From the NCBI GenBank assembly GCA_949294945.1, contig CASFJB010000003.1:1-53451 (forward strand): a stretch of DNA of 53,451 nt, given 5' to 3'. This document shows positions 17,172 through 36,357 of this stretch, piece by piece. Source of the stretch: an uncultured Eubacteriales bacterium (GTDB lineage: Bacteria; Bacillota; Clostridia; Oscillospirales; Oscillospiraceae). The notes beneath the pieces are model-generated. The model worked only from the letters and a program-made list of their open reading frames with translations. It was not told where the DNA came from and made no database searches. Each line of letters starts with the position of its first letter. The stretch's first letter is position 1. The position numbers and the translations under genes are program-made.

Positions 17172-17220
17172 ATGATGCAAAGGCTCCAGGGGCCGCCCGT
17201 CCCTAGAGCCTTTGCATCAT
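17172..17220 (-). terminator. hairpin at the end of the folate operon (no clear U-tract)
   Basis: 15-bp stem ATGATGCAAAGGCTC / GAGCCTTTGCATCAT with a 19-nt loop. It overlaps the MTHFS stop codon. Confidence 0.3.
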
Positions 17221-17771
17221 ATCTCTTTTCTTCTGTATACCCGCTCTTCCGTCACCACGGCATCCATGGGTACATCCCAGCTTTGGGCCTCCAGGACCTC
17301 CGCCCGCTGAAACTCGTAGGCCACGGCAACGAACTTGGCCCTGGTGCACCTGGGGAGAAAACGGTCGTAATATCCCCCGCCCATGCCAAGACGGCGGCAG
17401 CCGGCGTCAAAGGCGGTGCAGGGGCAGAGCACCAGGTCTATCTCCTCCGGGGCGATCTCCCGGGAGAGCTCCCGTACAGGCTCCGGTATGCCGAAGGCCC
17501 CTTTCTTCCAGGCCCCCTCCCCCTCCGGCAGCAGGGCGCACATCTCTCCCGCTCCGGTACAAAGAGGGTAGGCAAAGACCTTCCCCCGGAGCAGCTCCAG
17601 GCTCACCTCTCCCTGAACCGCCCTGTATATCATCACGGTCCGGGCCTGCCTGTATTCCGGCAGCTCCTCCACATTCTTTACGATACTCCGGGACAGCTTC
17701 TCCACAGTGTCCCGGTCCAGAGCCCTTCTGGCCCGGCGCATCTCCCGGCGAATGGTATCTGCATCCCTCAT
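17217..17771 (-). CDS. 5-formyltetrahydrofolate cyclo-ligase (MTHFS)
   Basis: 184 aa from MRDADTIRREMRRARRAL, with a GMGGGYYDR motif near the C-terminus. The ATG at 17771 overlaps the folD stop (ATGA). The 367-aa track ORF is an out-of-frame extension through folD. Confidence 0.85.
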   Translation of the reverse strand: MRDADTIRREMRRARRALDRDTVEKLSRSIVKNVEELPEYRQARTVMIYRAVQGEVSLELLRGKVFAYPLCTGAGEMCALLPEGEGAWKKGAFGIPEPVRELSREIAPEEIDLVLCPCTAFDAGCRRLGMGGGYYDRFLPRCTRAKFVAVAYEFQRAEVLEAQSWDVPMDAVVTEERVYRRKEI

Positions 17772-18649
17772 TTTAGGCTCCTCTCCGCCGCCGCTGCAAC
17801 ATGCTTCATCAGCACCCCAGAGGTGACCCGGCCCACTCCTCCCGGCACGGGGCTTATTGCCTCCACGGTCTTTTCCACTTCCCGGAATACCGTATCTCCC
17901 ACGAAGCCTCCCAGGCTTCCGTCGGCGTTTTTCAGCTCCGGCAGGAAGTTCATGGATACATCCAGCACCGTCTGCCCCGGCCGCACCATATCTCCGGTGA
18001 CAAGTCCCGGCCTGCCGGCGGCACAGATTATGATGTCCGCCTGGCGGCAGATGTCCCCCAGGCCTTCCGTGCGGCTGTGGCAGAGCGTTACGGTGGCATC
18101 TCTGGCCGTCAGAAGCATGGCCAGCGGCCTGCCCACCACCAGGCTTCTGCCTATCACTGCCGCTCTTTTGCCCCGGCATTCTATGCCGTAGTGATCCAAC
18201 ATCTCCAGACAGGCCTGGGCGGTACAGGGCGGGAAGCCCGCCCCCTCTCCGGTATATATTGTAGCAGCGGAGGCGGCGGTGCAGCCGTCCACGTCCTTTT
18301 CCGGGGCAAGGGCCTTGCATATTTCCCTCTGCTCCGCCGCAAGCTGCCCCGGCAAAGGCCGGAAAATAAGGCAGCCGTGTACGGTCCTGTCGGCGCTGAG
18401 CTCATTCAGCAGCTTTTTAAGCTCTTCCGGCGACGCCGTCTCAGGCAGCAAGCGCAGTCCTGCCTCTATCCCGCTGTGCCGGGCCTGGCGAAGGATGCTC
18501 TTTTCATAGGCAAGGTCCTCCTCCCGCTCTCCGCAGCGGACCAGGACAAGTTTCGGTACGATGCCCTGTTCCCTGAGCAGGGCGCTGCGCCCGGATATCT
18601 CTTTCTCCAGAGCTTCGGCCACCTCTTTGCCGGATAAAAGCTTTGCCAT
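17768..18649 (-). CDS. folD: bifunctional methylene-THF dehydrogenase / methenyl-THF cyclohydrolase
   Basis: MAKLLSGKEVAEAL start at 18649 with a GAGGAGGTAA RBS, plus GRSLVVGRPLAMLL and PGGVG motifs. Confidence 0.93.
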   Translation of the reverse strand: MAKLLSGKEVAEALEKEISGRSALLREQGIVPKLVLVRCGEREEDLAYEKSILRQARHSGIEAGLRLLPETASPEELKKLLNELSADRTVHGCLIFRPLPGQLAAEQREICKALAPEKDVDGCTAASAATIYTGEGAGFPPCTAQACLEMLDHYGIECRGKRAAVIGRSLVVGRPLAMLLTARDATVTLCHSRTEGLGDICRQADIIICAAGRPGLVTGDMVRPGQTVLDVSMNFLPELKNADGSLGGFVGDTVFREVEKTVEAISPVPGGVGRVTSGVLMKHVAAAAERSLK

Positions 18650-18650
18650 T

Positions 18651-19280
18651 TTACCTCCTCTGCTCCATGAGAGCGGCCATGACTTTGCCGTATATCTCCC
18701 CATGGAGCTCTTCGCAGCTCTTCTGTATCTCCAGACAGGCGGCATTCAGTCTCTCGGCCTCCGCTCTGTCCTTCAGACTTTTGGTGTTGATGTATACGTT
18801 AAGTGCCGCAGAATCTACGGCGGCCTTTAGCATGGCGGCGGCGCAGCCGGCGTCGGACACCGCCATCACCGAGCCCTTTTCCGCCATAAGCTTTGTCAGT
18901 TCCATGGCCCGGAGCGCAAGTTCCATTATCTTCTTCGGCGCGGTACAGGCGGTCAGAGTCGCCCATTCCAGCTTCTCCTCCCGGCCCGGCTCATCCTTGG
19001 GCAGTCTGTAGGTTTGACTGAGGGGTATGAAGCCCTCAGCATCCTCCATCACCGTATCCAGCAGCATTTCCCGGAGCTCTTCCAGTTCCGCCGCCGCTGC
19101 CCTTATCTCTTCCTCCACCCCGGCATAGCGCTTTTTGCCCACTGTCAGAGCGGCCACCATTTCCCCAAGGGCCGTCCCCAGGGCTCCGGCAAGAGCCGCC
19201 GCTCCGCCGCCGCCGGGAGTCGGGCTTTCGGAGGCCAGGAGGGCAGTAAAGTCCCGGCAGCTTTCCTTTGTGTAGTCCAT
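18651..19280 (-). CDS. cyclodeaminase/cyclohydrolase family protein (FTCD_C / FchA-like)
   Basis: 209 aa, all-helical, with N-terminal LASESPTPGGGGAAALAGALGTALGEMV, which is typical of the FTCD C-terminal domain family. Confidence 0.8.
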   Translation of the reverse strand: MDYTKESCRDFTALLASESPTPGGGGAAALAGALGTALGEMVAALTVGKKRYAGVEEEIRAAAAELEELREMLLDTVMEDAEGFIPLSQTYRLPKDEPGREEKLEWATLTACTAPKKIMELALRAMELTKLMAEKGSVMAVSDAGCAAAMLKAAVDSAALNVYINTKSLKDRAEAERLNAACLEIQKSCEELHGEIYGKVMAALMEQRR

Positions 19281-19292
19281 TCCCGCTCCCTC

Positions 19293-20504
19293 TCAGATTA
19301 TCAGTCCGTATCTGCTGCAGAGGGGCAGCAGCTCCTCTTCCCGAAGGCTTCCTTCGTACATTGCCCGGCCCTGATACAGTCTCAGGGCCTGCTCAAGGAG
19401 CTTGGCATCATCGCAGCAAAGGCAGAGGGGCTTTGAGATCATGAACTGGCAGTCGGCAAAGGCGGAGAGCTCCTCCTTTGACTTGATGGCTATGGCCACC
19501 ATTTCCCCTTCCGTTTCCTCCATAAGCTCCTCTTCCAGCTCCTCGTTGCAGCTGAGTATCCTGCCGTGTTCCGCAGAGGGCTCCAGAAAAAAGACCTCCT
19601 TCTCCGTGGCGCAGGGCAGCTTGTCAGCGTGCAAAGGCGCCGGGGACAGCATCTCCAGCGAGGCGCTGCCCTTGGCAATAGCCTCCACGTGGCCTGCCTC
19701 CGTGCCGCAGCAGCCGCCGAAGATGCAGACCCCCGCCCGGGCCATTCCGGGAATGCAGGCGGAGAACTCCTCCGGCGGGCAGTTGTACACCGTCTCTCCC
19801 TCCACCGTCTCCGGCATGCCGGCGTTGGGCTTTGCCAGCAGCGGTATGCAGGCTATTTCCCTCAGGCGCTCCAGCTGGACCAGCATCTCCTCCGGCCCCA
19901 CGGAACAGTTGAGTCCGAAGGCGTCGGCTCCCATGCCCTGCATTATCTGCAATGCCGCCCTCACATCGCTGCCGGTGAGGGTGCGGCCCTTCTCGTCGCA
20001 GGTGAAGGAGACAAACACCGGCTTTTCGCTGACGCTCTTCACCGCCAGCAGGGCGGCCCTGGCCTCCGCCACCGTCATCATGGTCTCTATGACATAGAGG
20101 TCCACCCCGGCGTTTTCCAAGGCGGCCGCCTGTTCGGTGTATATCTCCACCAGCTCGTCAAAGGATGCCGTGCCCAGGGGATAGAGCATCAGGCCCGTGG
20201 GGGCCAGGTCCCCGGCCACCCAGGCTCTGTCCCCCGCCGCCTTGCGGCTGAGGTTCACCAGGGCCTGGTTATATTCTTCCACCTTGCCGAAAATGCCGTG
20301 CTGCTCCAGCTTCACCCGGTTGGCCCCGAAGGTGGGGGCGTAGATGACCCGGCTGCCCGAGTCCACATAGCTGCGCTGTATCTCCAGTATGGCCTGGGGA
20401 TGGTTCAGCGTCCAGCTCTCGGCGCATTCCTCTCCGGTATAACCCCGCTTCTGCAGCTGGGTCCCGGTAGCCCCGTCCAATATAAGTGGAAAGCTCAGTT
20501 CCAT
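19293..20504 (-). CDS. homocysteine S-methyltransferase-family protein (MetH Hcy-domain-like) with an extra C-terminal ~100 aa
   Basis: ILDGATGTQLQ start and zinc-site GGCCGT. The tail KPLCLCCDDAKLLEQALRLYQGRAMYEG resembles part of a pterin-binding barrel. Confidence 0.8.
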   Translation of the reverse strand: MELSFPLILDGATGTQLQKRGYTGEECAESWTLNHPQAILEIQRSYVDSGSRVIYAPTFGANRVKLEQHGIFGKVEEYNQALVNLSRKAAGDRAWVAGDLAPTGLMLYPLGTASFDELVEIYTEQAAALENAGVDLYVIETMMTVAEARAALLAVKSVSEKPVFVSFTCDEKGRTLTGSDVRAALQIMQGMGADAFGLNCSVGPEEMLVQLERLREIACIPLLAKPNAGMPETVEGETVYNCPPEEFSACIPGMARAGVCIFGGCCGTEAGHVEAIAKGSASLEMLSPAPLHADKLPCATEKEVFFLEPSAEHGRILSCNEELEEELMEETEGEMVAIAIKSKEELSAFADCQFMISKPLCLCCDDAKLLEQALRLYQGRAMYEGSLREEELLPLCSRYGLII

Positions 20505-22045
20505 TCCAGTTCGTCCTCCTTGCTGAATGTCATATGTTCAGGGAAAGCCCGGTTGAAACGGGCATCCCCGGAAAGCTCTATATATCTGCACTTTTCCTGT
20601 ATCCTGTACAGCTCCTCCCGGCTGTCCATATCCAGCAGAGCCATGGCCGCCCCGCCAAGAGCGCTGTTTCCCAGAGCCTCTGCCCTGTCCGCCAGCTCCT
20701 CCGGCAGCATGCCTATGTCCGCCGCAGCCTTCACATCCAGGTGGGAGCCAAAGCCCCCGGCTATATACACCCGGCCAATATCTCCGGAACCTATGCCCAG
20801 CTCCTCCATGAGCACTTCTATCCCGGCGGCCACGGCGGCCTTGGCCAGCTGCAGCTGTCTCACGTCCCCGGCAGTTAGATATACTCTGTCGCTTAGGTAC
20901 AGGCAGCCGTTTCCCCTGTCATCTTCCCTCAGCCAGGGGCTGAGCTCTTCCGGGGCCTCTTCCGGAGGCAGCAGCCAGCCGCCCTCATCTACGGCTCCCA
21001 GCTCCAGCAGCAGGGCCAGCAGGCTGATGAGGCCGGAGCCGCACAGGCCCTTTGCCTCCCCGCCGCCAATGACATCCGTTTCAAAGCCCTTTCCCGTCCA
21101 TCTCACCGCCGTTACGGCCCCGGTCATGCTGGCCATCCCGCAGCTGATCCCGGCCCCCTCAAAGGCCGGGCCTGAGGCTACGGAGCAGGTGACAAAGCCG
21201 GCCCTGCCCCCCAGAGCCATCTCTCCGTTGGTGCCAATGTCCAGGAAAAGGTTCAGCCCTTCTCTGTCCCACAGGCCGGAAGAGAGCAGTCCCGCCATGA
21301 TATCCCCGCCCACATAGGCGGCTGCACAGGGAGCGGCCAAAGCTTTAACGTGTTTTATGTAAACCGGATCTCTCTTGGTGAACAGGCTTACAGGTCTGAA
21401 TGGGGCCACGGCAATACCAGCCGGGGAAAGGCCCATAAAAATGTGCTCCATCACCGTGTTGCCCACCGCGATGAGCTCTTCCAGGCTGTCGTCCTGTCTC
21501 CCTGAGCTGAGCATAAGCTCCCGGACAAGTTCAAAGACCTGGCTCCGTACCCGCTGTTTCAGCAGCTCCAGCCCGTCCTCATGTTCCATGATATACTGGC
21601 AGCGGCTGATGACGTCGGCCCCAAAGGGGCTCTGGCTGTTCCAGGCGCCCAGGCTGCCCAGCTCCAGGCCCTGCTCCAGATCAAAGAGCTTCACCGCCAG
21701 GGTGGTAGTGCCTATATCCACGGCAGCCCCCAGACCGCGGCGCCCGGTCCCGCGCCCGGATTCATGTGTTATGTCAACCTCTCTGCCCTCCCGGCAGATC
21801 TCTCCTGTTCCCCGCTCCGGAAGAAGCACTTCCATGTCCCCATCTATGTTATATCGGCAGGCCAGGACGCTTTCCCTGCCTCTGCCCCGGTCCACAATTA
21901 CCCGGCATTTGCCGCATTTCCCGTTTCCGCCGCAGGGCGCAGGCAGCTCCAGGCCGCCCCGGCGCAGGATTTCCAGAAGATTCTCCCCGTTTTTTGCTTT
22001 AAATTCAAAGTCTCTGTCCCCTTGACGGGCCAAAATCCTTGACAT
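20495..22045 (-). CDS. RACo-like reductive activator of corrinoid proteins (2Fe-2S ferredoxin + ASKHA ATPase, DUF4445 type)
   Basis: N-terminal plant-type ferredoxin CGGNGKCGKCRV. A long ASKHA-like body follows, with DIGTTT and DIGTNGE phosphate motifs. Confidence 0.85.
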   Translation of the reverse strand: MSRILARQGDRDFEFKAKNGENLLEILRRGGLELPAPCGGNGKCGKCRVIVDRGRGRESVLACRYNIDGDMEVLLPERGTGEICREGREVDITHESGRGTGRRGLGAAVDIGTTTLAVKLFDLEQGLELGSLGAWNSQSPFGADVISRCQYIMEHEDGLELLKQRVRSQVFELVRELMLSSGRQDDSLEELIAVGNTVMEHIFMGLSPAGIAVAPFRPVSLFTKRDPVYIKHVKALAAPCAAAYVGGDIMAGLLSSGLWDREGLNLFLDIGTNGEMALGGRAGFVTCSVASGPAFEGAGISCGMASMTGAVTAVRWTGKGFETDVIGGGEAKGLCGSGLISLLALLLELGAVDEGGWLLPPEEAPEELSPWLREDDRGNGCLYLSDRVYLTAGDVRQLQLAKAAVAAGIEVLMEELGIGSGDIGRVYIAGGFGSHLDVKAAADIGMLPEELADRAEALGNSALGGAAMALLDMDSREELYRIQEKCRYIELSGDARFNRAFPEHMTFSKEDELEWN

Positions 22046-22067
22046 ATATTTATCCTTTTCCTATAAT
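22039..22067 (+). promoter_or_regulatory. consensus sigma-A promoter TTGACA-17-TATAAT for the DUF2284/methyltransferase operon
   Basis: TTGACA lies at 22039-22044 and TATAAT at 22062-22067, giving an exact 17-nt spacer. Confidence 0.6.
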
Positions 22068-22070
22068 TAT

Positions 22071-22084
22071 TTAAAGTACTTTAA
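22071..22084. promoter_or_regulatory. 14-bp perfect palindrome TTAAAGTACTTTAA, candidate shared operator
   Basis: It lies immediately downstream of the plus-strand -10. It also lies next to a minus-strand TTGACA-16-TATATC promoter (22116-22111 / 22094-22089). Confidence 0.4.
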
Positions 22085-22140
22085 GTATGATATACAGTAG
22101 CCGGGGCTTTTGTCAAGGAGCATTGTGAAAGGAGCGAGGG

Positions 22141-22677
22141 ATGCCGGATTTTTTTCAGCTGGCCAGGCAAAACGGCTTTGAGCATATCGCTCCCCTTTGC
22201 ATGGAAGCACTGAAGCCTTTGCCTGAGGTGCGGGAAATGTGCGCCTCGGGGCGCTGTCTTAAATACGACCGCTGCTGGAGCTGTCCTCCCGCCTGCGGCA
22301 GCCTGGATGACACGGCCCGGCGCATGGGCCGTTACCGCCGGGGCATCCTGGTCCAGACCGTGGGAGAGCTGGAGGACGAGTTTGACAGCAGGGGCATAGC
22401 TCTGGCCCAGGCCAGGCACAAGTCGGCTTTTTCCAATCTGGCCAGGCAGGCCAGATGCCTGGAGCCGGACTGTCTGCCCCTCACCGCCGGGGCCTGCACC
22501 CTCTGCCATAAGTGCACCTGGCCGGACAGGCCCTGCCGCTTTCCCCAAAAGCGCCTGTCCTCCATGGAGGCCTACGGGCTGCTGGTGAGCGAAGTGTGCC
22601 TGCGCTCCGGGCTGGATTACAACTACGGTCCCGGCACCATTAGTTTCACTTCATGTATTCTGTTTGAAAAGGAGTAA
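22141..22677 (+). CDS. DUF2284-type metal-binding (Cys-rich) protein
   Basis: 178 aa with CASGRCLKYDRCWSCPPACG and CTLCHKCTWPDRPC cysteine clusters. This family recurs next to corrinoid methyltransferase genes. Confidence 0.7.
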   Translation: MPDFFQLARQNGFEHIAPLCMEALKPLPEVREMCASGRCLKYDRCWSCPPACGSLDDTARRMGRYRRGILVQTVGELEDEFDSRGIALAQARHKSAFSNLARQARCLEPDCLPLTAGACTLCHKCTWPDRPCRFPQKRLSSMEAYGLLVSEVCLRSGLDYNYGPGTISFTSCILFEKE

Positions 22678-22684
22678 AAGCGAG

Positions 22685-24400
22685 ATGCAGAGCCCTAAGG
22701 AAATTTTTCTGGAATTACTCAAGCCTGACGGCAGGCCGGAGCGGCAGCTGAAGCAATATGAGGCGCTGCATGTGGTGCTGAACGATCCTGTGAACGGCTA
22801 TCTCCGGGCCGGCCGGGGAAAGGGGCACACCAGTATCGACCGCTGGGGCACCACAATAATGTGGCCGGAGGATGCTCCCGGGCCCATGCCCCACATCACG
22901 CCGGAGACCAAGGTCTGCCCGGATATCACCCGCTGGCGGGAATATGTCCATGCCCCGGATCTGGAGTCCAACTGCACCCAGGGCTGGGAGGACTGTGCCG
23001 CCGCTGCCAGGGCAGCTGCTGGAGATGGCAAGATAATTGCCGGTTTCATGGGCACCGGCATTTTTGAGCAGTGCCATTTTCTCATGGGTTTCGAGGACAC
23101 TCTCACCAATCTTTACGAGCATCCGGAGGAAATGCATCAGCTTATTGATTATATTACGGACTACAGGCTACAATTCGTCAAATTACTTATTGACGGACTG
23201 GCCCCGGATATGATATTCTCCCATGACGACTGGGGCGCAAAGGATTCGCTGTTTATGAAGCCGGAAATGTGGCGGGAATTTTTCAAGGAACCCTACCGGC
23301 GTTTTTACGGCTACATCCGCTCCCGGGGCGTCATAGCCCTGCACCATGCCGACTCCTACCTGGCTCCCATTGTGGAGGACATGGCGGAGATAGGCATACA
23401 GATCTGGCAGGGTGTACTGCCGGATAACGATATCCCCGCTCTTCAGCGCCGGCTGAAGGGGCGCATGGTGCTCATGGGCGGCATAGGCGCCGCCATCGAC
23501 CGTCAGGACGCCTCCGAAGAGGAGATACGCAGCTATGTGGGCGCTGCTCTCAAAGCCTGCTGCCCCGGCGGCCATTTTATCCCCAGCATCACCTACGGTC
23601 TTGCCGGGACCGTATTCCCCCATGTAGACCCCATCATCGATGATGAGATAGACAAATACAACTCGGTGCTCCATATGCCTGCCCTTGACCTTCCCCCGGC
23701 GCCCCGGCGCGTCACGGCTCCTAAGGCCCATGTACAGGCCAAAGCCCAGGAGGATAAGCTTGACGGACTGCTCTCCCAGCTGTCCCAAGCCCTTTGCCGT
23801 GGGCAGAGGAAAAAGGTCCTGGAGCTCTGCCGTCAGGGTCTGGATCAGGGCTTTGAGGCCAGAGAGCTGCTGGAGCAAGGGCTTGTGGCCGGTATGACCA
23901 GGCTTGGCGACGACTTTACCGCAGGCCGGGCCTTTGTGCCGGAGATGCTTATGGCAGCCCGCTGCATGGCGGCGGCCACTGAGCTTTTAAAGCCTGGTCT
24001 TGTAAGCGGCGAAGAGAAAGCCGCAGGCCGGGTCGTTCTGGGCACGGTGAAGGGGGACATGCACGATATAGGCAAGAACCTGGTGAAGATAATGATGGAA
24101 GGCTGCGGCCTGGAGGTCATTGATCTGGGCCTGGACGTGAGTCCCGAGGCCTTTGTTGACACCGCTATCGAAAAAAACTGCGGTATTATAGCCTGCTCTT
24201 CCCTGCTTACCACCACCATGGCGGAAATGCGCCGGGTCGTAAACCTGGCGGTGGAAAAAGGTATCAGGGATAAAATAAAAATCATGGTTGGGGGCGCTCC
24301 CATCACTGAGAGCTTCTGCCAGGAGATCGGCGCTGACGCCTATACCGCCGACGCAGGTCAGGCGGCCAGGGTGGCCGTAAGTCTCCTGCAGGGCGCCTGA
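22685..24400 (+). CDS. URO-D-family (MtaA/CmuA/O-demethylase MT-I-like) methyltransferase fused to a cobalamin-binding domain
   Basis: The N-terminal ~340 aa are URO-D-like. The C-terminal ~215 aa carry a B12-binding cap plus a Rossmann domain with DMHDIGKN (DxHxxG), SSLLTTT and MVGGAP. The ATG at 22685 is preceded by AAAAGGAG. Confidence 0.85.
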   Translation: MQSPKEIFLELLKPDGRPERQLKQYEALHVVLNDPVNGYLRAGRGKGHTSIDRWGTTIMWPEDAPGPMPHITPETKVCPDITRWREYVHAPDLESNCTQGWEDCAAAARAAAGDGKIIAGFMGTGIFEQCHFLMGFEDTLTNLYEHPEEMHQLIDYITDYRLQFVKLLIDGLAPDMIFSHDDWGAKDSLFMKPEMWREFFKEPYRRFYGYIRSRGVIALHHADSYLAPIVEDMAEIGIQIWQGVLPDNDIPALQRRLKGRMVLMGGIGAAIDRQDASEEEIRSYVGAALKACCPGGHFIPSITYGLAGTVFPHVDPIIDDEIDKYNSVLHMPALDLPPAPRRVTAPKAHVQAKAQEDKLDGLLSQLSQALCRGQRKKVLELCRQGLDQGFEARELLEQGLVAGMTRLGDDFTAGRAFVPEMLMAARCMAAATELLKPGLVSGEEKAAGRVVLGTVKGDMHDIGKNLVKIMMEGCGLEVIDLGLDVSPEAFVDTAIEKNCGIIACSSLLTTTMAEMRRVVNLAVEKGIRDKIKIMVGGAPITESFCQEIGADAYTADAGQAARVAVSLLQGA

Positions 24401-24527
24401 ACCCCCGCACCGGCTGAGGCCTGCCATGTCACATCCAATGGAGGCCGTCCGCCGGGATATCTTCTCCGGCTTGCCGGGGAAACCGATGGGTAAAAATGCT
24501 TATCGATATTTGAAAGGAAGGTTTGTT

Positions 24528-26612
24528 ATGGCACGGAAAAAAGTTGATTCAGATGTGAAGAAAACCGCCGTGAAAGAGGCGGCAGCACCGGCTGCGGAAA
24601 AAGAAACCAAGGCCCCTGTCAAGGCTGCACCCGCTGAAAAGGCCGCTCCTGTAGAAAAAAAGACCGAGCCTGTTGTGGAGAAGAAAGCCGCTCCCGCTGA
24701 GAAGAAGGCCGAGCCCGTGGTGGAGAAAAAAGCCGCTCCCGCTGAGAAGAAGGCCGAGCCTGCAAAGAAGAAAGCTGCTCCCGCGAAAAAGAAGGCTGAG
24801 CCTGCCGAAAAGAAGGCTGAGCCTGCCGAGAAGAAGGCCGCTCCCGCAAAGAAGAAAGCCGCTCCCGCGAAAAAGAAGGCTGAGCCTGCCGAAAAGAAGG
24901 CTGAGCCTGCCGAGAAGAAGGCCGCTCCCGCAAAGAAGAAAGCCGCTCCTGCAAAGAAAAAGGCTGAACCCGCAGCAGAAGCCGCTCCCGTTGTAGAAGC
25001 TGCTCCCGTCGTTGAGGCCGCTCCCGTCGTTGAGGCCGCTCCCGTCGTTGAGACCACCCCCGTGGTGGAGGCCGCCCCCGTGGTGGAGGCCGCTCCTGTT
25101 GTTGAAGAAACCCCCGTTGTTGAGGAGGCTGCACCTGTGTTGGATATCTCTACTCTGCCCCGCAGAAGCGTGGCTTTCATCGGTTCCGAGTGTCATCCCT
25201 TTGTCAAGACCGGCGGGCTGGGGGATGTTATGTATGCCCTGCCCCGGGAGCTGGTCAAGCTCAACTGCGACGTGCGCGTGATCCTGCCCCGCTACGCCTG
25301 CATACCCAGGAAGTATCAGGACAAGATGGTTTACCGCGGCGAGTTCTACATGGACCTGGGCGGCACCGGTCGCGACTACTATGTAGGCATAATGGAATAC
25401 GTCTGTGACGGCGTTGTCTACGATTTCATCGACAACCAGGAGTTCTTCACCTCCGGCAATCCCTACACCAATCTTGTGGACGATATTCCCAAGTACTGCT
25501 TCTTCAGCAAGGCCGCCCTGGCTGCTCTCAACTACATGAACTGGATACCCGACATCATCCACTGCCACGACTGGCAGGCCGGTCTTGTCCCCGTGTATCT
25601 GCGTACCCTGTTCAAGGATACCCCTGTGGGCCGTGCCCGGTCTATACTTACCATACATAATCTCCGCTTCCAGGGCATCTTCAATATCCCCACCATAAAG
25701 TACTGGTCCGGTCTGCCCGACTCCGTATTCAACATGGGCGCTCTCCAGCAGGACTACGTCAACGCCAATATGCTCAAGGGCGGCCTGGCCTATGCCGACC
25801 GCATCACCACCGTCAGCGGCACCTACGCCTGGGAGATACAGACCGCCGAATACGGCGAGCGTCTGGAGGATCACCTGCGCTACCACAGCGGCAAGCTGAG
25901 AGGCATAGTCAACGGCATAGACTACGAAATGTGGAACCCTGAGACCGACCCGGCCCTGGCAGAGAATTACGGTCTGGCCAATGTGCTCAACCACAAGATG
26001 GAGAACAAGAAGGCCCTCCAGAGAGAGCTGGGCCTGGTGGAGGACGAAGGCAAGTTCGTCATTGGCCTCATCTCCCGTCTCACCAACCAGAAGGGTCTGG
26101 ATCTGGTGAGCACCATCGTGCCCCAGGTGCTGGACGGCAACACCCAGATCGTTGTCCTGGGTACCGGCGACGCCCAGTATGAGGACAGCTTCCGCTATTA
26201 TGAGGCCACCAACAAGGGCACCTTCAGCGCCTGCATCCAGTATGACGAGGCAAGAGCCCACCGCATTTATGCCGGCGCCGACGCTCTGCTGGTCCCCTCC
26301 CGCTTCGAGCCCTGCGGACTTACCCAGCTCAACGCCATGCACTACGGCACCCTGCCCATCGTCCGGGAGACCGGCGGCTTGAAGGACACCGTGCAGCCCT
26401 ACAATGATTTTACCGGCGAGGGCAACGGCTTTACCTTCGACCGCTACGACGCCGGATTGCTGCTGGATGCCATCAACCGGGCCAAGACCGTTTACTTCAC
26501 CAACCGCTATCACTGGGACGAGATAGTCCAGCGGGATATGGCCAAGGACGTGTCCTGGACCAACTCCGCAAGGCAGTACAAGGACCTGTATCTGGAACTG
26601 ACTCAGTGGTGA
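24528..26612 (+). CDS. glgA: glycogen (starch) synthase with a ~210-aa low-complexity N-terminal extension
   Basis: The GT5 core starts at RSVAFIGSECHPFVKTGGLGDV. The start MARKKVD at 24528 is preceded by AGGAAGG. Confidence 0.92.
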   Translation: MARKKVDSDVKKTAVKEAAAPAAEKETKAPVKAAPAEKAAPVEKKTEPVVEKKAAPAEKKAEPVVEKKAAPAEKKAEPAKKKAAPAKKKAEPAEKKAEPAEKKAAPAKKKAAPAKKKAEPAEKKAEPAEKKAAPAKKKAAPAKKKAEPAAEAAPVVEAAPVVEAAPVVEAAPVVETTPVVEAAPVVEAAPVVEETPVVEEAAPVLDISTLPRRSVAFIGSECHPFVKTGGLGDVMYALPRELVKLNCDVRVILPRYACIPRKYQDKMVYRGEFYMDLGGTGRDYYVGIMEYVCDGVVYDFIDNQEFFTSGNPYTNLVDDIPKYCFFSKAALAALNYMNWIPDIIHCHDWQAGLVPVYLRTLFKDTPVGRARSILTIHNLRFQGIFNIPTIKYWSGLPDSVFNMGALQQDYVNANMLKGGLAYADRITTVSGTYAWEIQTAEYGERLEDHLRYHSGKLRGIVNGIDYEMWNPETDPALAENYGLANVLNHKMENKKALQRELGLVEDEGKFVIGLISRLTNQKGLDLVSTIVPQVLDGNTQIVVLGTGDAQYEDSFRYYEATNKGTFSACIQYDEARAHRIYAGADALLVPSRFEPCGLTQLNAMHYGTLPIVRETGGLKDTVQPYNDFTGEGNGFTFDRYDAGLLLDAINRAKTVYFTNRYHWDEIVQRDMAKDVSWTNSARQYKDLYLELTQW
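24782..24949 (+). repeat. perfect 84-bp tandem duplication (2 copies) inside the glgA 5' extension
   Basis: 24782-24865 and 24866-24949 are identical base for base. Each encodes a 28-aa AKKKAEPAEKKAEPAEKKAAPAKKKAAP-type unit. Confidence 0.95.
24981..25124 (+). repeat. eight tandem 18-nt units encoding (A/T/E)(A/T)PVVE
   Basis: GCCGCTCCCGTCGTTGAG-like units translate to AAPVVE x8, with TTPVVE and ETPVVE variants. Confidence 0.9.
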
Positions 26613-28625: not shown

Positions 28626-29201
28626 TCATTTACCGCCTTTCAAACTTTCAAGATAGGCCTCAGGGCCGCTCTCATATATATTTCCCCCAAGACTGTCTAT
28701 AGCCACGGTGAGAGGCATGTCTTTTATCTCCAGCCGCCGCACCGCCTCACAGCCCAGGTCCTCCCAGCATATCACTTCCGCGGACCTGATGCACTGGCTC
28801 ATCAGCGCCCCCGCTCCGCCCATGGCGGCCAGGTACACCGCGCCGTTTCGCACCATGGACTCTATTACTTCCTTATTGCGCATGCCCTTGCCTATCATAA
28901 GCTTCTGTCCCAGGTCAAGGAGCCTGGGTGAATAGGCGTCCATACGCCCGGAGGTGGTGGGACCGGCAGAGCCGATGGCCCGTCCGGGCGGTTCCGGCGT
29001 TGGCCCCACGTAGTAGACGGCGCTGTCTTTCAGTTCAAAAGGCAGCGGCTCCCCCCGGTCCAGACACTCCACCATCCGCTTGTGGGCAGCGTCCCTGGCG
29101 GTATATATCTCCCCGCTGAGATACACCATGTCCCCGGCCCGGAGCTTAGCCAGCTCCTCCCGGCTCAGGGGTGTTTTAAGGCTATATTCCATAGTGCTCA
29201 T
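28626..29201 (-). CDS. Fe-S hydro-lyase beta subunit (class I fumarate hydratase / tartrate dehydratase beta)
   Basis: 191 aa with a GPTTSGRMD motif. The start ATG overlaps the stop of the upstream GT-C gene (ATGA at 29198-29201). Confidence 0.88.
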   Translation of the reverse strand: MSTMEYSLKTPLSREELAKLRAGDMVYLSGEIYTARDAAHKRMVECLDRGEPLPFELKDSAVYYVGPTPEPPGRAIGSAGPTTSGRMDAYSPRLLDLGQKLMIGKGMRNKEVIESMVRNGAVYLAAMGGAGALMSQCIRSAEVICWEDLGCEAVRRLEIKDMPLTVAIDSLGGNIYESGPEAYLESLKGGK

Positions 29202-30880
29202 TCCTTTCTCTCCAGAACAAAAAATCCCCCATACTGTCTGGCATCAAACAGATCCATATCAAAGCAATCCAGCTCGTCCTCAGCTGCCACATATACCGCA
29301 TCCTCTTCCGGGTCTATCTCAATATCCTCCATAGGCGCAAAAGTATAGCGTTCATCAAAAGGCAGCAGCCCCTCCGGGCAGGTCTTGCCCTGGTAGTACT
29401 CCGCATCCGTCTCGTGATAGAAAAGAGTCAGAATCTCGCTGATGTTTCCCCGTGTATCGTCATGCAGGGAGGCGGTTATATACATCTTTTCCGCATCGTC
29501 GTCCTTTATGGACAGCATGGCATCTCCAAAGTCTTTATAGAAATAGTACTCAAGAGTCTTGGAATATTCCCCAAAATAGCTAAAGCACATCATCACAAAG
29601 GCAAGCATATAAACGGCAGCCAGGCCTGCTCTCAGCGGCACGGAGGCAAAGCTCCTCGCTGTCAGGTATATGCCCACGGCGGCAAAGATGATCTGGGGGT
29701 AAAAAATGATGTTTATCCGGTTTACATTCACCCCTATGGTACATACCCCGCACCACAGCCCGGTGATATAAAACAGGATCAGCAGCGCCGCAGCACTGTT
29801 TTTTCTGAATTGCAGCAAAGTCCAGCCCAGACCCAGCAGCACAAAGGGAATGGAAAATAAGTATATGGTTCCATAGGCGGGCATGCTGTTCCAGGGCTTG
29901 TCCGGCGCCTGGATGAACACCACCAGCAGCAGGCATTTGATATCGTACAGCAGCTGTATAATAAAGCTGTACTTCGGGTCATGGAAGAACAGAATGTCGC
30001 TGGAGCGGCGGCTGTCCGGGAAAAACGGCAGAGTGAAGGGCCCCAGCTCTATGGTCTCAAGCCCAAAGAAGTTTATGACCATTACCGTAATGAAGGGCCA
30101 GGACACCGCCAGCCACACCACCAATGCCAAAAATGCCTCCGGAATGCTGACCTCTTTCTTCACCAGCAAATATATACAGGCCATTACCAGAAACAAGGGC
30201 ATGGTATATATCGCTATTCCGTAGCAGTACATGCACAGGCCGAACATCACCATGCTGACGCTCAGAGTCAGCTTGCGGTGCCTGGCTTTCATGGAGCGGT
30301 TCAAAAAGTATATTCCAAACAGGAAGAAATGGGGATACAAATTGCAGTCCAAAGCCCAGCGGCTCTGCATAAAATGCCAGGGCGCAATACAGCCGAAAGC
30401 AAAAATGAACAATGCCGCTTTCTTGCCGAAGGCATCTCTGGAAAAAAGATACAAAACCGCCAAGCCCAGCAGGCTGACTATCAGTATGGGCAGGCGCGCC
30501 GATACCGGGCTGAAGCCCATGAGCTTTATAAAGGGCACCATCAGGTAGCTGAGCAAAGCGCTCATCTGGCCGTAGCCCCAGGCTGTGAGATGCACCGGCA
30601 GGCTCATGCCGTAGCGATCGGTGCCATGGTCCGCCAGCGCCTTGCCGTCTACCGCAGCCATGGCCCCGTCCTGATAGAAGCCTCCCGGCACCTGGCCGAA
30701 TTTATATACCCGGACAAATACGGCCACAAGGGCAAAAAACACAAATATTGTCCAATACAGCCTGTCGGACATCTCCAGCTCCAAGAGACTTCCGGAATTC
30801 TTGTACAGTCTCTTTGCCGTCATAAGGCAGAGCATGAGCACGGCAAAGGCCAGAACTATACTTATCGCTATCATAAGCAA
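29198..30880 (-). CDS. GT-C fold membrane glycosyltransferase, ArnT/PMT(GT39/GT83)-like; paralog 1 (intact)
   Basis: 560 aa and polytopic. The first loop reads GGFYQDGAMAA, followed by ARLPILIVSLLGLAVLYLFSRDAFGKKAALFIFAFGCIAPWH, which is typical of ArnT/PMT_2 proteins. A soluble C-terminal domain of ~140 aa follows. Confidence 0.7.
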   Translation of the reverse strand: MLMIAISIVLAFAVLMLCLMTAKRLYKNSGSLLELEMSDRLYWTIFVFFALVAVFVRVYKFGQVPGGFYQDGAMAAVDGKALADHGTDRYGMSLPVHLTAWGYGQMSALLSYLMVPFIKLMGFSPVSARLPILIVSLLGLAVLYLFSRDAFGKKAALFIFAFGCIAPWHFMQSRWALDCNLYPHFFLFGIYFLNRSMKARHRKLTLSVSMVMFGLCMYCYGIAIYTMPLFLVMACIYLLVKKEVSIPEAFLALVVWLAVSWPFITVMVINFFGLETIELGPFTLPFFPDSRRSSDILFFHDPKYSFIIQLLYDIKCLLLVVFIQAPDKPWNSMPAYGTIYLFSIPFVLLGLGWTLLQFRKNSAAALLILFYITGLWCGVCTIGVNVNRINIIFYPQIIFAAVGIYLTARSFASVPLRAGLAAVYMLAFVMMCFSYFGEYSKTLEYYFYKDFGDAMLSIKDDDAEKMYITASLHDDTRGNISEILTLFYHETDAEYYQGKTCPEGLLPFDERYTFAPMEDIEIDPEEDAVYVAAEDELDCFDMDLFDARQYGGFFVLERKE

Positions 30881-30937
30881 ACCTCGTTTCTCTTTTCTCT
30901 CTGCATAAGTCCGGTGGTCGCCGGACAGCCGTCTGCT

Positions 30938-32592
30938 TCAGTCCCTGGTCTCCAGCAGATAGTAAGTGCCAAACTGCTCCACATCGTAGAGCTCCAGCTC
31001 AAAACAGCCCAGCTCGTTTTCCGCCGCCACATAGGCGGCATCCTCCTGCGGGTCTATATCTATATCCTCCATATTGGCATAGGTATAGCGCTCCCCATAG
31101 GGCAGCAGCCCCTCCGGGCAGGTCTTGCCCTGATAGTACTCCGAATCTATCTGGTGATAGAACAGCGTCAGGACTTCGCTGACATAGGCGGTGTTCTCCC
31201 CCTGGCTCTTGCCGGTTATATAGAATCTCTCCGCATCGCTGTATTGCAGGGCCGAGACCGCCGTGCCGAAGTCCTTGAAAAAGCAATATTCCATCTGCCC
31301 GGCATAGTATCCAAAGTAAGTACTGCACAGCAGGGCAAAAGCCAGCAGATAGGCGGCAGCCACACCCAGGCGCAGGGGAAAGGCGTCCATGCGGCAGAAC
31401 ACCGTATATATGCCCAGGGCGGTAAAAAGGATTTGTGGGTAGAAGATGATGTTTATGCGGTTGATGTTCACTCCGTTGGTGCATAGGCCGCACCACAGCC
31501 CGGTGATGAAGAAGAACAGCAGCAGCACTGCCCCGTCGTTATTTTTAAGCCGCAGCAGTACATACACAAAGCCCAGCACCGCAAAGGGCATCGAGAACAG
31601 ATATATGCTGCCGAAGGCAGGGATATTGTTCCAGAGCAGGTCGCTCCCCTGAGCAAACACCGCAGTTTGCAGGGATTTAAGATTCTCCCACAGCTGGGAG
31701 AGTATATCATCGGAAAAGAAAAGTATATCGTTGGAACGGACGCTGCCGGAAAAATAGGGCAGAGTGAAAGGGCCTATCTCCACCGTATCCCAGCCGAAGT
31801 AGTTGATGGCCATGGCAAGGATGAAGGGCCAAGACACCGCCAGCCAGACCGCCATGGCCATCAGCGCCTCCCCTATGCTTACTTTTTTCTTCAGCAGCAG
31901 ATAAACGCAGGCAAGCACCAGAAACAGCGGCACACGCCATAGCAGTACATGCACAGGCCGAACATCACCATGCTCAGGCACAGCAGCAGCTTACGGCGCC
32001 CGGCTTTCAGGGAGCGGTTGAGAAAATATACTCCGAAGAGAAAGAAGTGGGGGTACAGATTGCAGTCCAGGGCCCAGCGGCTCTGAAGAATATGCCAGGG
32101 GGCTATGGCCCCAAAGGCAAAAACTATAAGCGCCGCCTTTTTCCCAAAAGCATCCCGGCTGAAGAAGTACAGGGCGGCCAGGCCCAGCAGGCTGACGATC
32201 AGCTGGGGCAGCCGGGCGGACACCGCATTCAGACCCATAAGCTTTATAAAGGGCACCATCAGGTAGCTGAGCAGAGCGCTCATCTGACCGTAGCCCCAGG
32301 CCGTGAGATGCACCGGCAGGCTCATGCCGTAGTGATCCGTGCCGTGTTCCGCCAGGGCCAAAGCATCTATGGCGGCCATAGCCCCGTCCTGGTTGAAGCC
32401 GCCGGGTACAGAGCCAAATTTATACACCCTAACCAGCACTGCCGCCAGGGCAAAAAACAGCAGCAGGGCTTTATACACCCGGTCATTCAGGGATAGCTCC
32501 AGATCGGAATGGGGCCGGGACAGCAGCCTGGCCATGGCCACAGTGGTCAGAAACAGGGACAAGGCATAAAAGATTAGATTTAATGAATCCAT
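30938..32592 (-). pseudogene. GT-C paralog 2, reading frame broken by a 13-nt deletion
   Basis: ORFs 31891-32592 (N-terminal half) and 30938-31981 (C-terminal half) are collinear with paralog 1. They sit in different frames. The sequence at 31931-31934 lacks the TGGTATATATGGA present in paralog 3. Confidence 0.75.
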
Positions 32593-32613
32593 ATTTTTAT
32601 TTACTGATGGCTC

Positions 32614-34288
32614 TTACTTTCTGTCCAGCACATAATAATATGGTCCGAACTGCTGGATATCGTATAGCTCTGTGTTAAAATACTCCAGTTCATGTACAGC
32701 CACAAGATACACTGCATTTTCGTTTTCGTCTATTTCCATATCGCTCAGATATCCATAAACATACCTCTCCTTATATGGAAGTATGTTTTCGGGCTCCGTT
32801 TTACCTAGGCAGTACTCGGCATCTAACTCATGGTAGAACATTGTAAGGACCTCGCTTGTCTGTATTCCGTGAGCTTCCGCTGTTATATATATTTTATCTG
32901 CATCACTGTCTCTTATCTCTGCAAGTGCCTGGCCGTAATATTTGTAAAAATACCGCTCAATTGACTGAGCTTGGGAATTATACGGGTCAAAATAGCAGCG
33001 TGCAAATAACACAAAAGACAAAAGGTATACCACTGCCGGCATAAGTCTAATCAGCCCTTTGGTATTTCTCATGAAAGCCGCTACTCCCAGGCCAAGAAAA
33101 ACTATTTGCGCATAGAAAATAATATTGATTCTGTTGATATTTACCGCATTGGTAATTATTCCGCACCATAGGCCTGTAAGCCACATAAGGAATATGAGGA
33201 CGGCTCCGGTGTTTACTTTCATCTGCTTGATAAGCCATCCCAATCCCAATAAGACAAATGGCAGAGAAAACTTATATATGCTGCCATACATGGGAATATT
33301 GTTCCACGGTACATCATCCCACTGAAGGAAAACCACCGATACTGTTGTCTTAATGTTTTCAAACAACTGCCTGAGTATATCGTCTGAGAAGAAAAGAATG
33401 TCACCAGCTCTGACACTGTCTTTAAAGTTTTGCAAGGTGAAAGGGCCTATCTCCACCGTATCCCAGCCGAAGTAGTTGATGGCCATGACAAGGATGAAGG
33501 GCCAGGACACCGCCAGCCAGACCGCCATGGCCATCAGCGCCTCCCCTATGCTTACTTTTTTCTTCAGCAGCAGATAAACGCAGGCAAGCACCAGAAACAG
33601 CGGCCAGAAACAGCGGCATGGTATATATGGACACGCCATAGCAGTACATGCACAGGCCGAACATCACCATGCTCAGGCACAGCAGAAGCTTACGGTGCCC
33701 GGCTTTCAGTGAACGGTTAAGGAAATAGATTCCGAAAAGGAAAAAGTGTGGGTAGAAGTTTGCCTCCAATGCCCAACGGCTTTGCATTATATGCCAAGGA
33801 GCTATAGCTGCAAAAAACAATATAATCAGTCCGGTTTTTCTGCCAAAAATATCTCTTGAGACTTTATATAGTACAATTAGCGACAGGCAGCTGACCAGCA
33901 GAGTTGGAATTCTTATAGTGACCGACGTCATGGAAAACATCTTTACTTTTGGGGCTATGAAGTAAGACATAAGTACGCTCATCTGAGCAAATTTCCATGC
34001 TTCGAAAAATACCGGATAAGATGTCCCATAAATGTCCGTACCATAATCAGCCAAGGCCTTGGCATTTATGGCGGCCATTGCTTCATCTTCTTTTATTCCG
34101 CAGGGCACCGCTCCAAATTCGTACAGACGAACGGCGAGCCCCAGAGCAACAATAATAAAAAGCAAGATTTTTTCTGCTTTCCTGGGTATAGACCAATGTC
34201 CTTCCTCAGGATTCTTGACTAACTTATGTGCAGTTAATATACAGAGTACGGCAAAAAATACGAACAATACCGGGTTAACCCTCGACAT
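32614..34288 (-). pseudogene. GT-C paralog 3 (AT-rich), reading frame broken by a 13-bp tandem duplication
   Basis: ORFs 33422-34288 and 32614-33639 are collinear with paralog 1. CCAGAAACAGCGG is directly duplicated at 33591-33616. Removing one copy restores ...YTMPLFLVLACVYLLLKKK. Confidence 0.75.
33591..33616 (-). repeat. 13-bp direct tandem duplication causing the paralog 3 frameshift
   Basis: CCAGAAACAGCGG occurs at 33591-33603 and again at 33604-33616. Confidence 0.95.
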
Positions 34289-34382
34289 TTAGCTTTCCAC
34301 CCTTTAGATCAATTGTTATCCACAACCCAATGAGACTGCTGTAATTTAAAATACATTAATATTAAGTATTTTGAGGTTAGGC

Positions 34383-35225: not shown

Positions 35226-35412
35226 AGCATTAAAACGGCCCCGCCTCCATGGGGCTCTCCCTTTCCGTTATAGACGGGAATATTATTCCACCCCTTCACC
35301 CGCCTGTCAAGTCCAAGAAAGCTTTGAAAGCCAGGCATATTTAAAAAATTTTACATATTGGTGCTTGCTAAATGCAGCACCCCTGTGTTAAACTCCCCTG
35401 CGAGGTGAATGT

Positions 35413-36210: not shown

Positions 36211-36236
36211 GGCAGCATAATTTATATTACATAAGC

Positions 36237-36285
36237 ATGGGCCCGGCGCAGCTGCACCGGGCCCATTTTACTGTTTATTTTTTTT
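36237..36285 (+). terminator. intrinsic terminator after the HAD gene
   Basis: 10-bp stem ATGGGCCCGG / CCGGGCCCAT followed by a T-rich run, TTTTACTGTTTATTTTTTTT. Confidence 0.75.
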
Positions 36286-36310
36286 GCCTGGTTTGCCAGG
36301 GTGAGCCTGC

Positions 36311-36341
36311 AAAAAACCACCGCAGTTCAAAACTGCGGCGG
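36311..36341 (-). terminator. intrinsic terminator after xerD
   Basis: The minus strand reads CCGCCGCAGTT-loop-AACTGCGGTGG followed by TTTTTT. Confidence 0.7.
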
Positions 36342-36357
36342 TATGTTTTATAAGACC

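Follow-up and report, generated by a model that had tools for sequence, protein, structure and literature searches.

How does a methyl group reach homocysteine at a locus that encodes a MetH-like homocysteine module, a corrinoid domain and a corrinoid activase, and in which no pterin-binding methyltransferase is visible? The question is raised by a 53,451-nt contig of an uncultured Eubacteriales bacterium (Oscillospiraceae sensu GTDB; GenBank assembly GCA_949294945.1, contig CASFJB010000003.1, forward strand), which at its full length is called the window here, and within it by two divergent gene groups at positions 17217-24400. A first-pass annotation, made from the letters alone, had suggested that these genes form a split, folate-independent methionine synthase of the MetH kind with a possible link to folate one-carbon (C1) genes. 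We find that the conserved unit consists of four genes, encoding a fusion of a UroD-fold domain with a corrinoid (B12) domain, a DUF2284 protein, a RACo/RamA-type reductive activase and a 403-aa homocysteine methyltransferase (HcyMT). Judged from its sequences, the locus has about an even chance of encoding a self-contained, cobalamin-dependent module that carries a methyl group in two steps from a non-folate donor to homocysteine and is in effect a methionine synthase assembled from non-standard parts.

Conservation and distribution of the four-gene cassette

The 45 larger of the 49 open reading frames (ORFs) called in the window were scanned with Pfam, and all of the domains that had been named for the locus are present, with very strong scores. 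On the plus strand, the DUF2284 gene (22141-22677, 178 aa; PF10050, E 1.5e-43) precedes the fusion gene (22685-24400, 571 aa; URO-D, 4.6e-15, plus B12-binding_2 and B12-binding, with the motif GDMHDIG). On the minus strand, the activase gene (20495-22045, 516 aa; Fer2 7e-09, Raco_middle 1.9e-39, RACo_C_ter 3.7e-68) precedes the HcyMT gene (19293-20504; PF02574, E 1.3e-70 over residues 7-278, with the motifs GLNCS and GGCCGT). Searching metagenome contigs and GTDB species genomes by tblastn with the window proteins, we found this arrangement conserved, with the DUF2284 and fusion genes running in one direction and the activase and HcyMT genes divergently in the other. In 31 GTDB species-level loci, the available sequence reaches 4.5 kb or more upstream of the homocysteine gene. 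In this set, the fusion gene adjoins the HcyMT gene in 29, the activase gene lies between DUF2284 and HcyMT in 23, and all four genes are present in 22, the activase gene being locally missing in some; DUF2284 lies directly upstream of the fusion gene in most cassettes. The core gene order, whose conservation in relatives had been in question, is thus retained. Over the loci, the identities of HcyMT and of the UroD domain co-vary (r = 0.87), and the UroD domain has a mean identity of 71% across species (range 60-89%); the 403-aa protein therefore co-varies with the fusion protein and not with a pterin module. The unusual parts list noted in the first-pass annotation likewise recurs in many species: a fused UroD::corrinoid protein of the methyltransferase I (MT-I) type together with RACo, and a MetH-type homocysteine module in the place of the pterin-dependent methyltransferase II (MT-II).

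The nearest carriers of the window cassette belong to Candidatus Limivicinus (Oscillospiraceae; 91% and 87%), which places the window in this genus or near it. Other carriers include many Oscillospiraceae metagenome-assembled genomes (MAGs), Scatomorpha, Hominicoprocola fusiformis, Vescimonas fastidiosa, Mogibacterium kristiansenii, Eubacterium pyruvativorans and a MAG labelled [Eubacterium] saphenum (locus L037). The carriers are gut, rumen and oral Clostridia, concentrated in abundant, little-studied gut Oscillospiraceae. The flanks of the cassette differ by lineage and the neighbourhoods are unrelated; clustering of 414 flanking ORFs from 48 loci revealed no recurrent neighbour function. 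A gene for an NSS-family sodium-dependent transporter stands beside the cassette in Vescimonas (L088:5515-6843) and a few kb from it in the Mogibacterium group (L050:14525-15994). These two transporters are 33% identical to each other and occur in only two lineages; they may be importers of the methyl donor or of an amino acid, or they may stand there by coincidence.

MetH ancestry of the 403-aa protein

The first ~285 residues of HcyMT (19650-20504, minus strand) form a PF02574 homocysteine/zinc barrel, of which residues 7-278 match the homocysteine barrel of Thermotoga maritima MetH (1q7m, E 4.8e-62). Five motifs are invariant in 38 homologues, namely DGATGT, ETMM (E140), NCS (C200), PNAG (N227) and GGCCGT (C265/C266). 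From the MetH structures, we take C200, C265 and C266 to be the zinc cysteines, N227 to ligate zinc in the resting enzyme and E140 to hold the amino group of homocysteine. Because the zinc and homocysteine motifs are invariant, the acceptor is very probably still homocysteine, and the protein is presumed to be a methylcorrinoid:homocysteine methyltransferase.

The C-terminal ~115 residues had been regarded as unassigned filler. This has to be corrected: phmmer, tblastn, AlphaFold2 and Foldseek point to a vestigial piece of the MetH folate barrel at residues ~286-403 (19293-19649, minus strand). A weak second phmmer stretch aligns residues 353-393 with residues 380-420 of T. maritima MetH, at the start of the folate barrel. 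MetH proteins of Lachnospiraceae (Roseburia, Agathobacter and others), ~40% identical, align to residues 6-400 and run on through the full folate barrel, ~175 residues more, into a B12 domain, as ordinary MetH proteins of ~800 aa. The folate domain of Roseburia MetH, used as a tblastn probe, finds a full-length match in nearly all Lachnospiraceae MetH loci. In the whole window, it matches only the 3' end of the HcyMT gene (19305-19472, E 4.6e-5), and the window and those loci of our group 1 that give a match show only the last ~55 HcyMT codons, equivalent to folate-domain residues ~63-119. The AlphaFold2 model of the 403-aa protein has a mean confidence (pLDDT) of 90.6 and a pTM of 0.91, and its tail, with pLDDT above 90, consists of four strand-helix units; Foldseek places the whole chain on T. 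maritima MetH(1-566) with a TMq of 0.84 over 430 columns. The tail motifs LPCATEK, KPLC, LRLYQGRAxYEG and YGLII are strongly conserved. When the sequences are compared by eye, the position of the Asp in the MetH motif LDTS is variable, that of the Asn in INS is Glu or Asp, and GERINPTG is absent; in MetH and MeTr structures, these positions are pterin contacts. On these alignments and models, the 403-aa protein is the truncated N-terminal half of a MetH. Its homocysteine/zinc barrel is intact, whereas of the folate barrel only the first third to half persists, as a conserved vestige that is cut after about strand 4 and has its pterin-contact residues replaced.

At E <= 1e-20, HcyMT matches more than 2,600 clusters formed at 90% identity, canonical MetH relatives included. 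The closest 120 are almost all 403-405 aa long, with full-length coverage and 59-98% identity. A pseudogene or assembly artefact was considered and rejected, as over 100 independent clusters hold the 403-405-aa form at full length, with a conserved tail whose fold is predicted with confidence. The possibility that the protein is an ordinary MetH fragment, which the first-pass annotation had raised against its own proposal, is right as to ancestry and wrong as to status. It is a piece of MetH, yet not a stray one: the truncated form, with its degenerate half of a folate barrel, is fixed and conserved as a family. One homologue (P0003, 603 aa) was excluded from the alignments for an internal duplication of ~200 residues, most likely an assembly artefact. 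A 485-aa protein of a related MAG (L079:9950-11407) carries PF02574 followed by PF00809 profile positions 2-130 of 244, without a B12 domain after it; it looks like either an evolutionary intermediate of the truncated MetH or a broken MetH.

The UroD::corrinoid fusion protein

The C-terminal 210 residues of the fusion protein constitute a standard methyltransferase corrinoid domain, whose best PDB sequence match is a Moorella corrinoid protein (1y80, E 6e-51). Its cap and Rossmann B12 parts (23768-24400, plus strand) match PF02607 (1.6e-17) and PF02310 (2.1e-27), and its DxHxxG motif (GDMHDIG) lies at ~24056-24073, with D458, H460 and G463 invariant in 36 homologues. The N-terminal barrel (residues ~1-332; 22685-23680, plus strand) matches the URO-D family. 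In the AlphaFold2 model of the fusion protein (mean pLDDT 80), a disordered linker (residues 331-359) connects the two domains; Foldseek assigns the N-terminal domain to the UroD fold (2eja and 3gw0, E ~1e-9) and the C-terminal domain to corrinoid proteins and the MetH B12 domain. Among the top 120 matches, homologues are ~570 aa long, always fused and 72-91% identical. A tblastn comparison with CmuA of Methylorubrum extorquens CM4 shows collinearity over residues 186-548 (28% identity, E 4e-26). The fusion protein is therefore presumed, from its domain order, to be a methyl-loading module that combines MT-I and corrinoid protein in one chain in the order of CmuA.

A search of 1.8 billion representatives returned 4,036 relatives of the UroD domain; among them are stand-alone forms of ~330 aa and fusions in either domain order, which are 35-54% identical. 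An alignment of the window clade shows WG, E128, DDxG (181-184) and H221 to be invariant. The zinc motif H-x-C-x(n)-C is a feature of the MtaA/CmuA family. The window clade has H221-A-D223 in place of H-x-C and lacks the third Cys, while distant members keep H-x-C. No NCBIfam model reaches its cutoff for the UroD domain or for 10 of its distant relatives, the only matches being weak ones to MtaA/CmuA models (TIGR01463 scores 29.7 bits for the fusion protein against a cutoff of 235). The domain belongs to an uncharacterised clade. Neither the PDB sequence search, which returned only UroD (E 0.085), nor the gene contexts of stand-alone relatives gave a clue to the substrate. One relative of reversed order is a 613-aa protein (L094:3169-10801), in which the corrinoid domain precedes a UroD domain that is 36% identical to that of the window and, like it, carries HHSDSY; it adjoins a CfbA-E-like cluster for coenzyme F430 biosynthesis, and its source is presumably a methanogen or an alkane-oxidising archaeon.

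The RACo activase and DUF2284

The 516-aa activase is predicted to be an ATP-dependent reductive activase of corrinoid proteins; its NCBIfam match, to an AcsV-like model, is sub-threshold. The S-adenosylmethionine (AdoMet) reactivation domain of MetH, PF02965, is in none of the scanned window proteins, and the RACo activase is there instead. RamA-like proteins with Fer2 and DUF4445 have been genetically tied to MetH lacking the AdoMet domain (bioRxiv 10.1101/192971).

Seven cysteines of the DUF2284 protein (C34, C39, C48, C119, C122, C125 and C132) recur, each in 90% or more of 36 sequences, in the pattern C-x4-C-x8-C-PP and C-x2-C-x2-C-x6-C. This pattern fits Fe-S binding, and DUF2284 is probably an Fe-S protein that acts together with the fusion protein and the activase. 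No relative was found in the PDB, and the literature searched held no functional study, only two incidental mentions. A paralogous cassette (L093:431-5577) encodes a formate/nitrite-family (FNT) transporter, a 589-aa UroD::B12 fusion whose UroD part is 41% identical to that of the window, DUF2284 and RACo, and has no homocysteine methyltransferase gene nearby. Since it keeps the last three genes without a homocysteine gene, DUF2284 belongs with the fusion and the activase; it also suggests a wider family of fusion, DUF2284 and RACo modules that use other acceptors.

The methyl donor

The first-pass annotation had seen no pterin-binding MT-II at the locus, and this stands: no PF00809 protein was found among the 45 window ORFs scanned, and the tblastn probe hits only the 3' end of HcyMT described above. 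With the MetH folate domain as the tblastn query, no full pterin domain was found within 10 kb of any of the 49 group-1 loci. On an 860-kb Vescimonas replicon, the only PF02574 gene is that of the cassette, and no pterin match occurs among the best 40 records listed.

The UroD superfamily includes MT-I enzymes for aryl ethers and haloalkanes, with CmuA as a fusion of MT-I and corrinoid protein (PMC13222342), and the characterised corrinoid methyltransferases of this superfamily take aryl methyl ethers, halomethanes or thiols and thioethers as substrates (PMC13222342, PMC8630106). MtoA was considered as a precedent for a UroD-family pterin methyltransferase and was rejected, as it is MtrH-like (PMC8630106). 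The methyl donor of the cassette is thus most likely not 5-methyl-tetrahydrofolate (methyl-THF). A non-folate donor is favoured because the folate site has been destroyed rather than kept, because no pterin module accompanies the cassette within 10 kb in 49 loci and because the known UroD-superfamily corrinoid enzymes use no pterins (PMC13222342, PMC8630106).

Folate C1 genes beside the cassette

Downstream of HcyMT on the minus strand lie genes for FchA (18651-19280; Pfam FTCD_C 9e-56, with a sub-threshold NCBIfam FchA match), FolD (17768-18649; Pfam) and MTHFS (17217-17771; TIGR02727, above cutoff). The proposed link between the methyl-transfer genes and these folate C1 genes is not borne out. 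Only the two closest relatives, both Limivicinus (L008 and L009), have FchA and MTHFS after the cassette, with no FolD between them; in the remaining group-1 loci, neither gene follows it. Because the folate genes trail the cassette only in these two genomes, they are not part of the conserved system, and from the gene order we regard FchA, FolD and MTHFS as lineage-specific, co-transcribed passengers that are operon neighbours in Limivicinus.

In Vescimonas, a glycine-cleavage operon (gcvT-H-P) lies 2.7 kb from the cassette. The gene annotated as gcvT in V. fastidiosa (pMM35_01, L088:13488-16133) encodes 881 aa, with serine-hydroxymethyltransferase-like motifs in the C-terminal half; its product looks like a GcvT-SHMT fusion, heading a gcvH-PA-PB-lpdA operon.

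Proposed mechanism and alternatives

In the two-step module proposed here, the UroD domain would methylate its own tethered Co(I) corrinoid from a non-folate donor. The UroD and corrinoid domains are connected by a flexible linker of ~30 residues, as in CmuA. The methylated B12 domain would swing to the 403-aa MetH-derived protein and dock on it. There, a zinc-activated homocysteine thiolate would take the methyl group, yielding methionine and Co(I), so that the direction of transfer would be from the UroD domain to homocysteine. Should the cofactor fall into the Co(II) state, its re-reduction with ATP would be the task of the RACo/RamA-type activase, and the cysteine-rich DUF2284 protein would probably feed or assist this step. 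The idea of a split, MetH-like, folate-independent synthase put forward in the first-pass annotation thus gains from the parts list and from a published precedent, MtgBCDE (PMC12478193), and loses its tie to the folate C1 genes.

Several observations weigh against this module. Two lineages place the cassette near C1/folate genes (FchA/FolD/MTHFS in the window and the glycine-cleavage operon in Vescimonas), a proximity that we judge to be compatible with chance. That the UroD domain is so highly conserved (mean 71%) points to a substrate of a universal, housekeeping kind, and methyl-THF fits this better than a dietary compound. [Eubacterium] saphenum is a small-genome oral species, and it and Mogibacterium are asaccharolytic. 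Retention of the cassette in L037, the MAG with the [Eubacterium] saphenum label, likewise suggests a housekeeping substrate, and its presence in asaccharolytic taxa (Mogibacterium and this MAG) counts on the same side. The UroD clade fits no curated family above threshold, and the fusion protein may serve other acceptors, as the L093 cassette has no adjacent homocysteine gene. Finally, no SAM or T-box riboswitch precedes the cassette, a point to which we give little weight.

An unlikely but serious alternative is an ordinary folate-dependent synthase, in which the UroD domain, in the place of the lost folate barrel, transfers the methyl group of 5-methyl-THF to the corrinoid, so that the net reaction is that of MetH and the cassette is a housekeeping methionine synthase. 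It would account for a UroD domain that is 60-89% identical across species, for the single copy per locus in varied contexts, for retention in asaccharolytic and oral taxa (Mogibacterium, [Eubacterium] saphenum), for the operon with FchA/FolD/MTHFS here and the nearby gcvT-H-P genes in Vescimonas, and for the strong face-to-face promoters, which are predicted and suggest constitutive expression. There is, however, no evident reason to destroy a working folate barrel and replace it for the same substrate, and the adjacency to folate genes is seen in ~2 of ~30 independent contexts, about chance level. In addition, no UroD-superfamily enzyme in PMC13222342 or PMC8630106 uses a pterin, bacterial MT-II enzymes and MtoA being pterin-binding or MtrH-type proteins. 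The folate-dependent synthase keeps a minor but appreciable share of the probability because of the UroD conservation, the asaccharolytic carriers and the two C1/folate proximities.

Distinctly less probable is a catabolic demethylase whose main sink is THF, reached through a pterin methyltransferase encoded elsewhere, with the homocysteine module as a side outlet to methionine, as in MtgBCDE. MtgBCDE shows the same branching (PMC12478193), and the Clostridium ljungdahlii genome encodes THF methylases at sites away from corrinoid clusters that have none of their own (PMC10418091). The paralogous fusion-DUF2284-RACo cassette without a local acceptor gene and the folate C1 genes downstream of the cassette in the window also fit such a sink. 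Yet the conserved neighbour of the fusion gene is the homocysteine gene (29 of 31 loci), and the pterin domain that such a sink needs was found neither within 10 kb in the 49 group-1 loci nor among the best 40 records listed for the 860-kb Vescimonas replicon. The carriers, moreover, include non-acetogenic taxa, which would gain little from methyl-THF.

The methanogen UroD-family enzymes MtaA, MtbA and MtsA act as MT-II, and MtsA runs thioether demethylation reversibly; several cultured carriers of the cassette are amino-acid fermenters, and methionine is a poor methyl donor to cob(I)alamin. Reverse operation, in which methionine or another S-methyl compound gives its methyl group to the corrinoid through the MetH-derived protein and the UroD domain is an MtaA-like MT-II for another acceptor, would suit these methanogen enzymes, the amino-acid-fermenting carriers and the H-x-C thiol-zinc motif of distant UroD-clade members, but is very improbable given that H-x-D replaces H-x-C and the third Cys is gone in the window clade, that no acceptor pathway is encoded, that methionine is so poor a donor and that the fusion has the order of CmuA, a loading enzyme.

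Returning to the module with a non-folate donor, we consider a wider reading of it tentative: in a large group of gut, rumen and oral Clostridia (Oscillospiraceae sensu GTDB and the Mogibacterium/[Eubacterium] group), methionine would be made by this cassette alone, supplied from a non-folate donor through the UroD loader. Under this reading, to which the same reserve applies, the cassette would add one more class to the B12-dependent, folate-independent methionine synthases, and DUF2284 would be a newly recognised Fe-S component in the reactivation of corrinoids. If the module with a non-folate donor is real, gut bacteria would have a new route by which an external or unconventional methyl donor feeds their methionine/SAM pool, a function could be assigned to DUF2284, and automated reconstruction of the metabolism of the carriers would give wrong calls for methionine synthesis and B12 dependence. 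In evolutionary terms, the cassette is a clear case of module swapping: a MetH interrupted within its folate barrel has been paired anew with a CmuA-like loader. Four carriers (Vescimonas fastidiosa MM35, Eubacterium pyruvativorans i6, Mogibacterium kristiansenii and Hominicoprocola fusiformis) are cultured, and the four proteins are of soluble type and amenable to anaerobic reconstitution.

Comparison with known methyl-transfer systems

Two modular systems of Rhodobacterales resemble the cassette in part. In MtgBCDE of Ruegeria pomeroyi, glycine betaine or methyl-THF loads a corrinoid protein, from which a free PF02574 protein takes methyl groups (Mausz et al. 2025, PMC12478193), and Phaeobacter inhibens has a three-part MetH with a RamA-like activase (Price et al., bioRxiv 10.1101/192971). 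There as here, a stand-alone PF02574 protein is paired with a corrinoid domain on another polypeptide, a Fer2 and DUF4445 protein (RamA/RACo) substitutes for the AdoMet reactivation domain, and an accessory protein without assigned function travels along (DUF1638 there, DUF2284 here). The proposed cassette and MtgBCDE would further share a corrinoid that can be loaded by a non-folate donor. MtgBCDE differs in its free-standing corrinoid protein, its essential pterin methyltransferase MtgD and its alternative loader of the MttB family. In the window, by contrast, the corrinoid domain is fused to a UroD-fold loader and the cassette lacks a pterin module. The homocysteine protein of MtgBCDE is equated with the Sinorhizobium bhmt product, whereas that of the window is a truncated MetH N-terminal half with a dead half folate barrel, and the hosts of the cassette are strictly anaerobic Clostridia.

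The core MetE-type enzymes MesA-D (PMC7857596, PMC7005905) resemble the proposed module in concept, as they methylate homocysteine from a corrinoid protein and not from methyl-THF. They differ in having a MetE-family fold instead of the PF02574 barrel of MetH, and they come without a dedicated cassette of loader and activase.

The canonical Clostridial MetH (Hcy, pterin, cap and B12 domains, ~800 aa; for example Roseburia faecis, L083) is ~40% identical to the 403-aa protein over its first ~420 residues, including the start of the folate barrel, and shares the zinc and homocysteine motifs and the type of B12 domain. The window protein differs from it in that the folate barrel is cut after ~four strands with loss of the pterin contacts, the B12 domain is on a separate 571-aa protein behind a UroD barrel, and activation would be by RACo.

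CmuA, which works with CmuB, likewise has an N-terminal UroD-superfamily methyltransferase and a C-terminal corrinoid domain on one polypeptide. Unlike in the cassette, where the partner is a homocysteine methyltransferase, its methyl group goes to the pterin-type CmuB and on to THF; its zinc motif is H-x-C as opposed to H-x-D in the window, and the identity of the UroD parts is low. The cmu genes are linked to folD, purU and metF, which resembles the FolD neighbour in the window.

O-demethylase (Cdm-type) and mlp type 1 systems also combine a UroD-superfamily methyltransferase, a corrinoid domain and a RACE/Ram activase, and mlp clusters, like the cassette, lack a THF methylase and are widespread in Firmicutes of anoxic habitats (Kountz & Balskus, PMC10418091). 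Both have a free corrinoid protein, unlike the cassette, and the O-demethylases use a pterin MT-II. Set against their four-part plan of MT-I, corrinoid protein, MT-II and activating enzyme, the window has the corrinoid protein fused to MT-I and MT-II replaced, so that only the activating enzyme and the UroD superfamily match. The mlp clusters carry two or three distinct Mlp paralogues, and type 1 needs at least Mlp2 and Mlp3 together with a free corrinoid protein and Ram, whereas the window has a single, fused UroD domain. A term search of PMC10418091 found neither DUF2284 nor a homocysteine component in mlp clusters.

We found no description of the gene combination of the cassette in the literature searched, and NCBIfam has no specific name for the core cassette proteins. 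The RefSeq names in Vescimonas fastidiosa MM35 are "homocysteine S-methyltransferase family protein", "DUF2284 domain-containing protein" and "cobalamin-dependent protein". By its composition, the cassette would be a variant of the known split or modular B12-dependent methionine synthases and not a categorically new system.

Gene starts, spacing and regulatory elements

Gene starts were chosen by inspection of start codons and ribosome-binding sites, which places the FolD start at 18649 and the MTHFS start at 17771. The fusion gene most likely starts at ATG 22685 and not at 22664, as had been assumed; this start yields 571 aa, as in the homologues, and leaves a gap of 7 nt after DUF2284. On the minus strand, the activase and HcyMT genes overlap by 10 nt, HcyMT and FchA are separated by 12 nt and FchA and FolD by 1 nt, and FolD and MTHFS overlap in ATGA. 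A scan of the HcyMT-FchA interval showed neither a promoter-like nor a terminator-like element.

In the 95-nt divergent spacer, two sigma-70-like promoters stand face to face: TTGACA-17-TATAAT on the plus strand (22039-22067), matching the consensus at 12 of 12 positions, and TTGACA-18-TATCAT on the minus strand (22116-22087), matching at 11 of 12. The consensus scan found 8 promoter-like sites in the divergent region against 2.3 expected. Rfam searches at gathering thresholds found no SAM, T-box, cobalamin or THF riboswitch in the window or in four related loci; this absence says little, because the canonical Roseburia MetH locus is also without one in the same search. A GC-rich inverted repeat, GCAAAGGCTC...GAGCCTTTGC, at 17176-17216, directly downstream of MTHFS on the minus strand, looks like the terminator stem of the operon; it was missed by the terminator scan because it lacks a T-run.

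Other features of the window

The rest of the window carries housekeeping and cell-envelope genes, among them those for Lon, trigger factor, glycosyltransferases, starch synthase, malic enzyme, Tgt and polyphosphate kinase. The starch synthase (24426-26612; Glyco_transf_5 and GT1) has an N-terminal extension of ~245 residues without assignment. A stretch of low GC content (29198-37248; 0.47 at 32-34 kb against ~0.57 elsewhere) contains two genes for PMT_2-type glycosyltransferases and several ORFs without a Pfam match, followed by a tyrosine recombinase gene (36358-37248), and may be a horizontally acquired cell-surface island.

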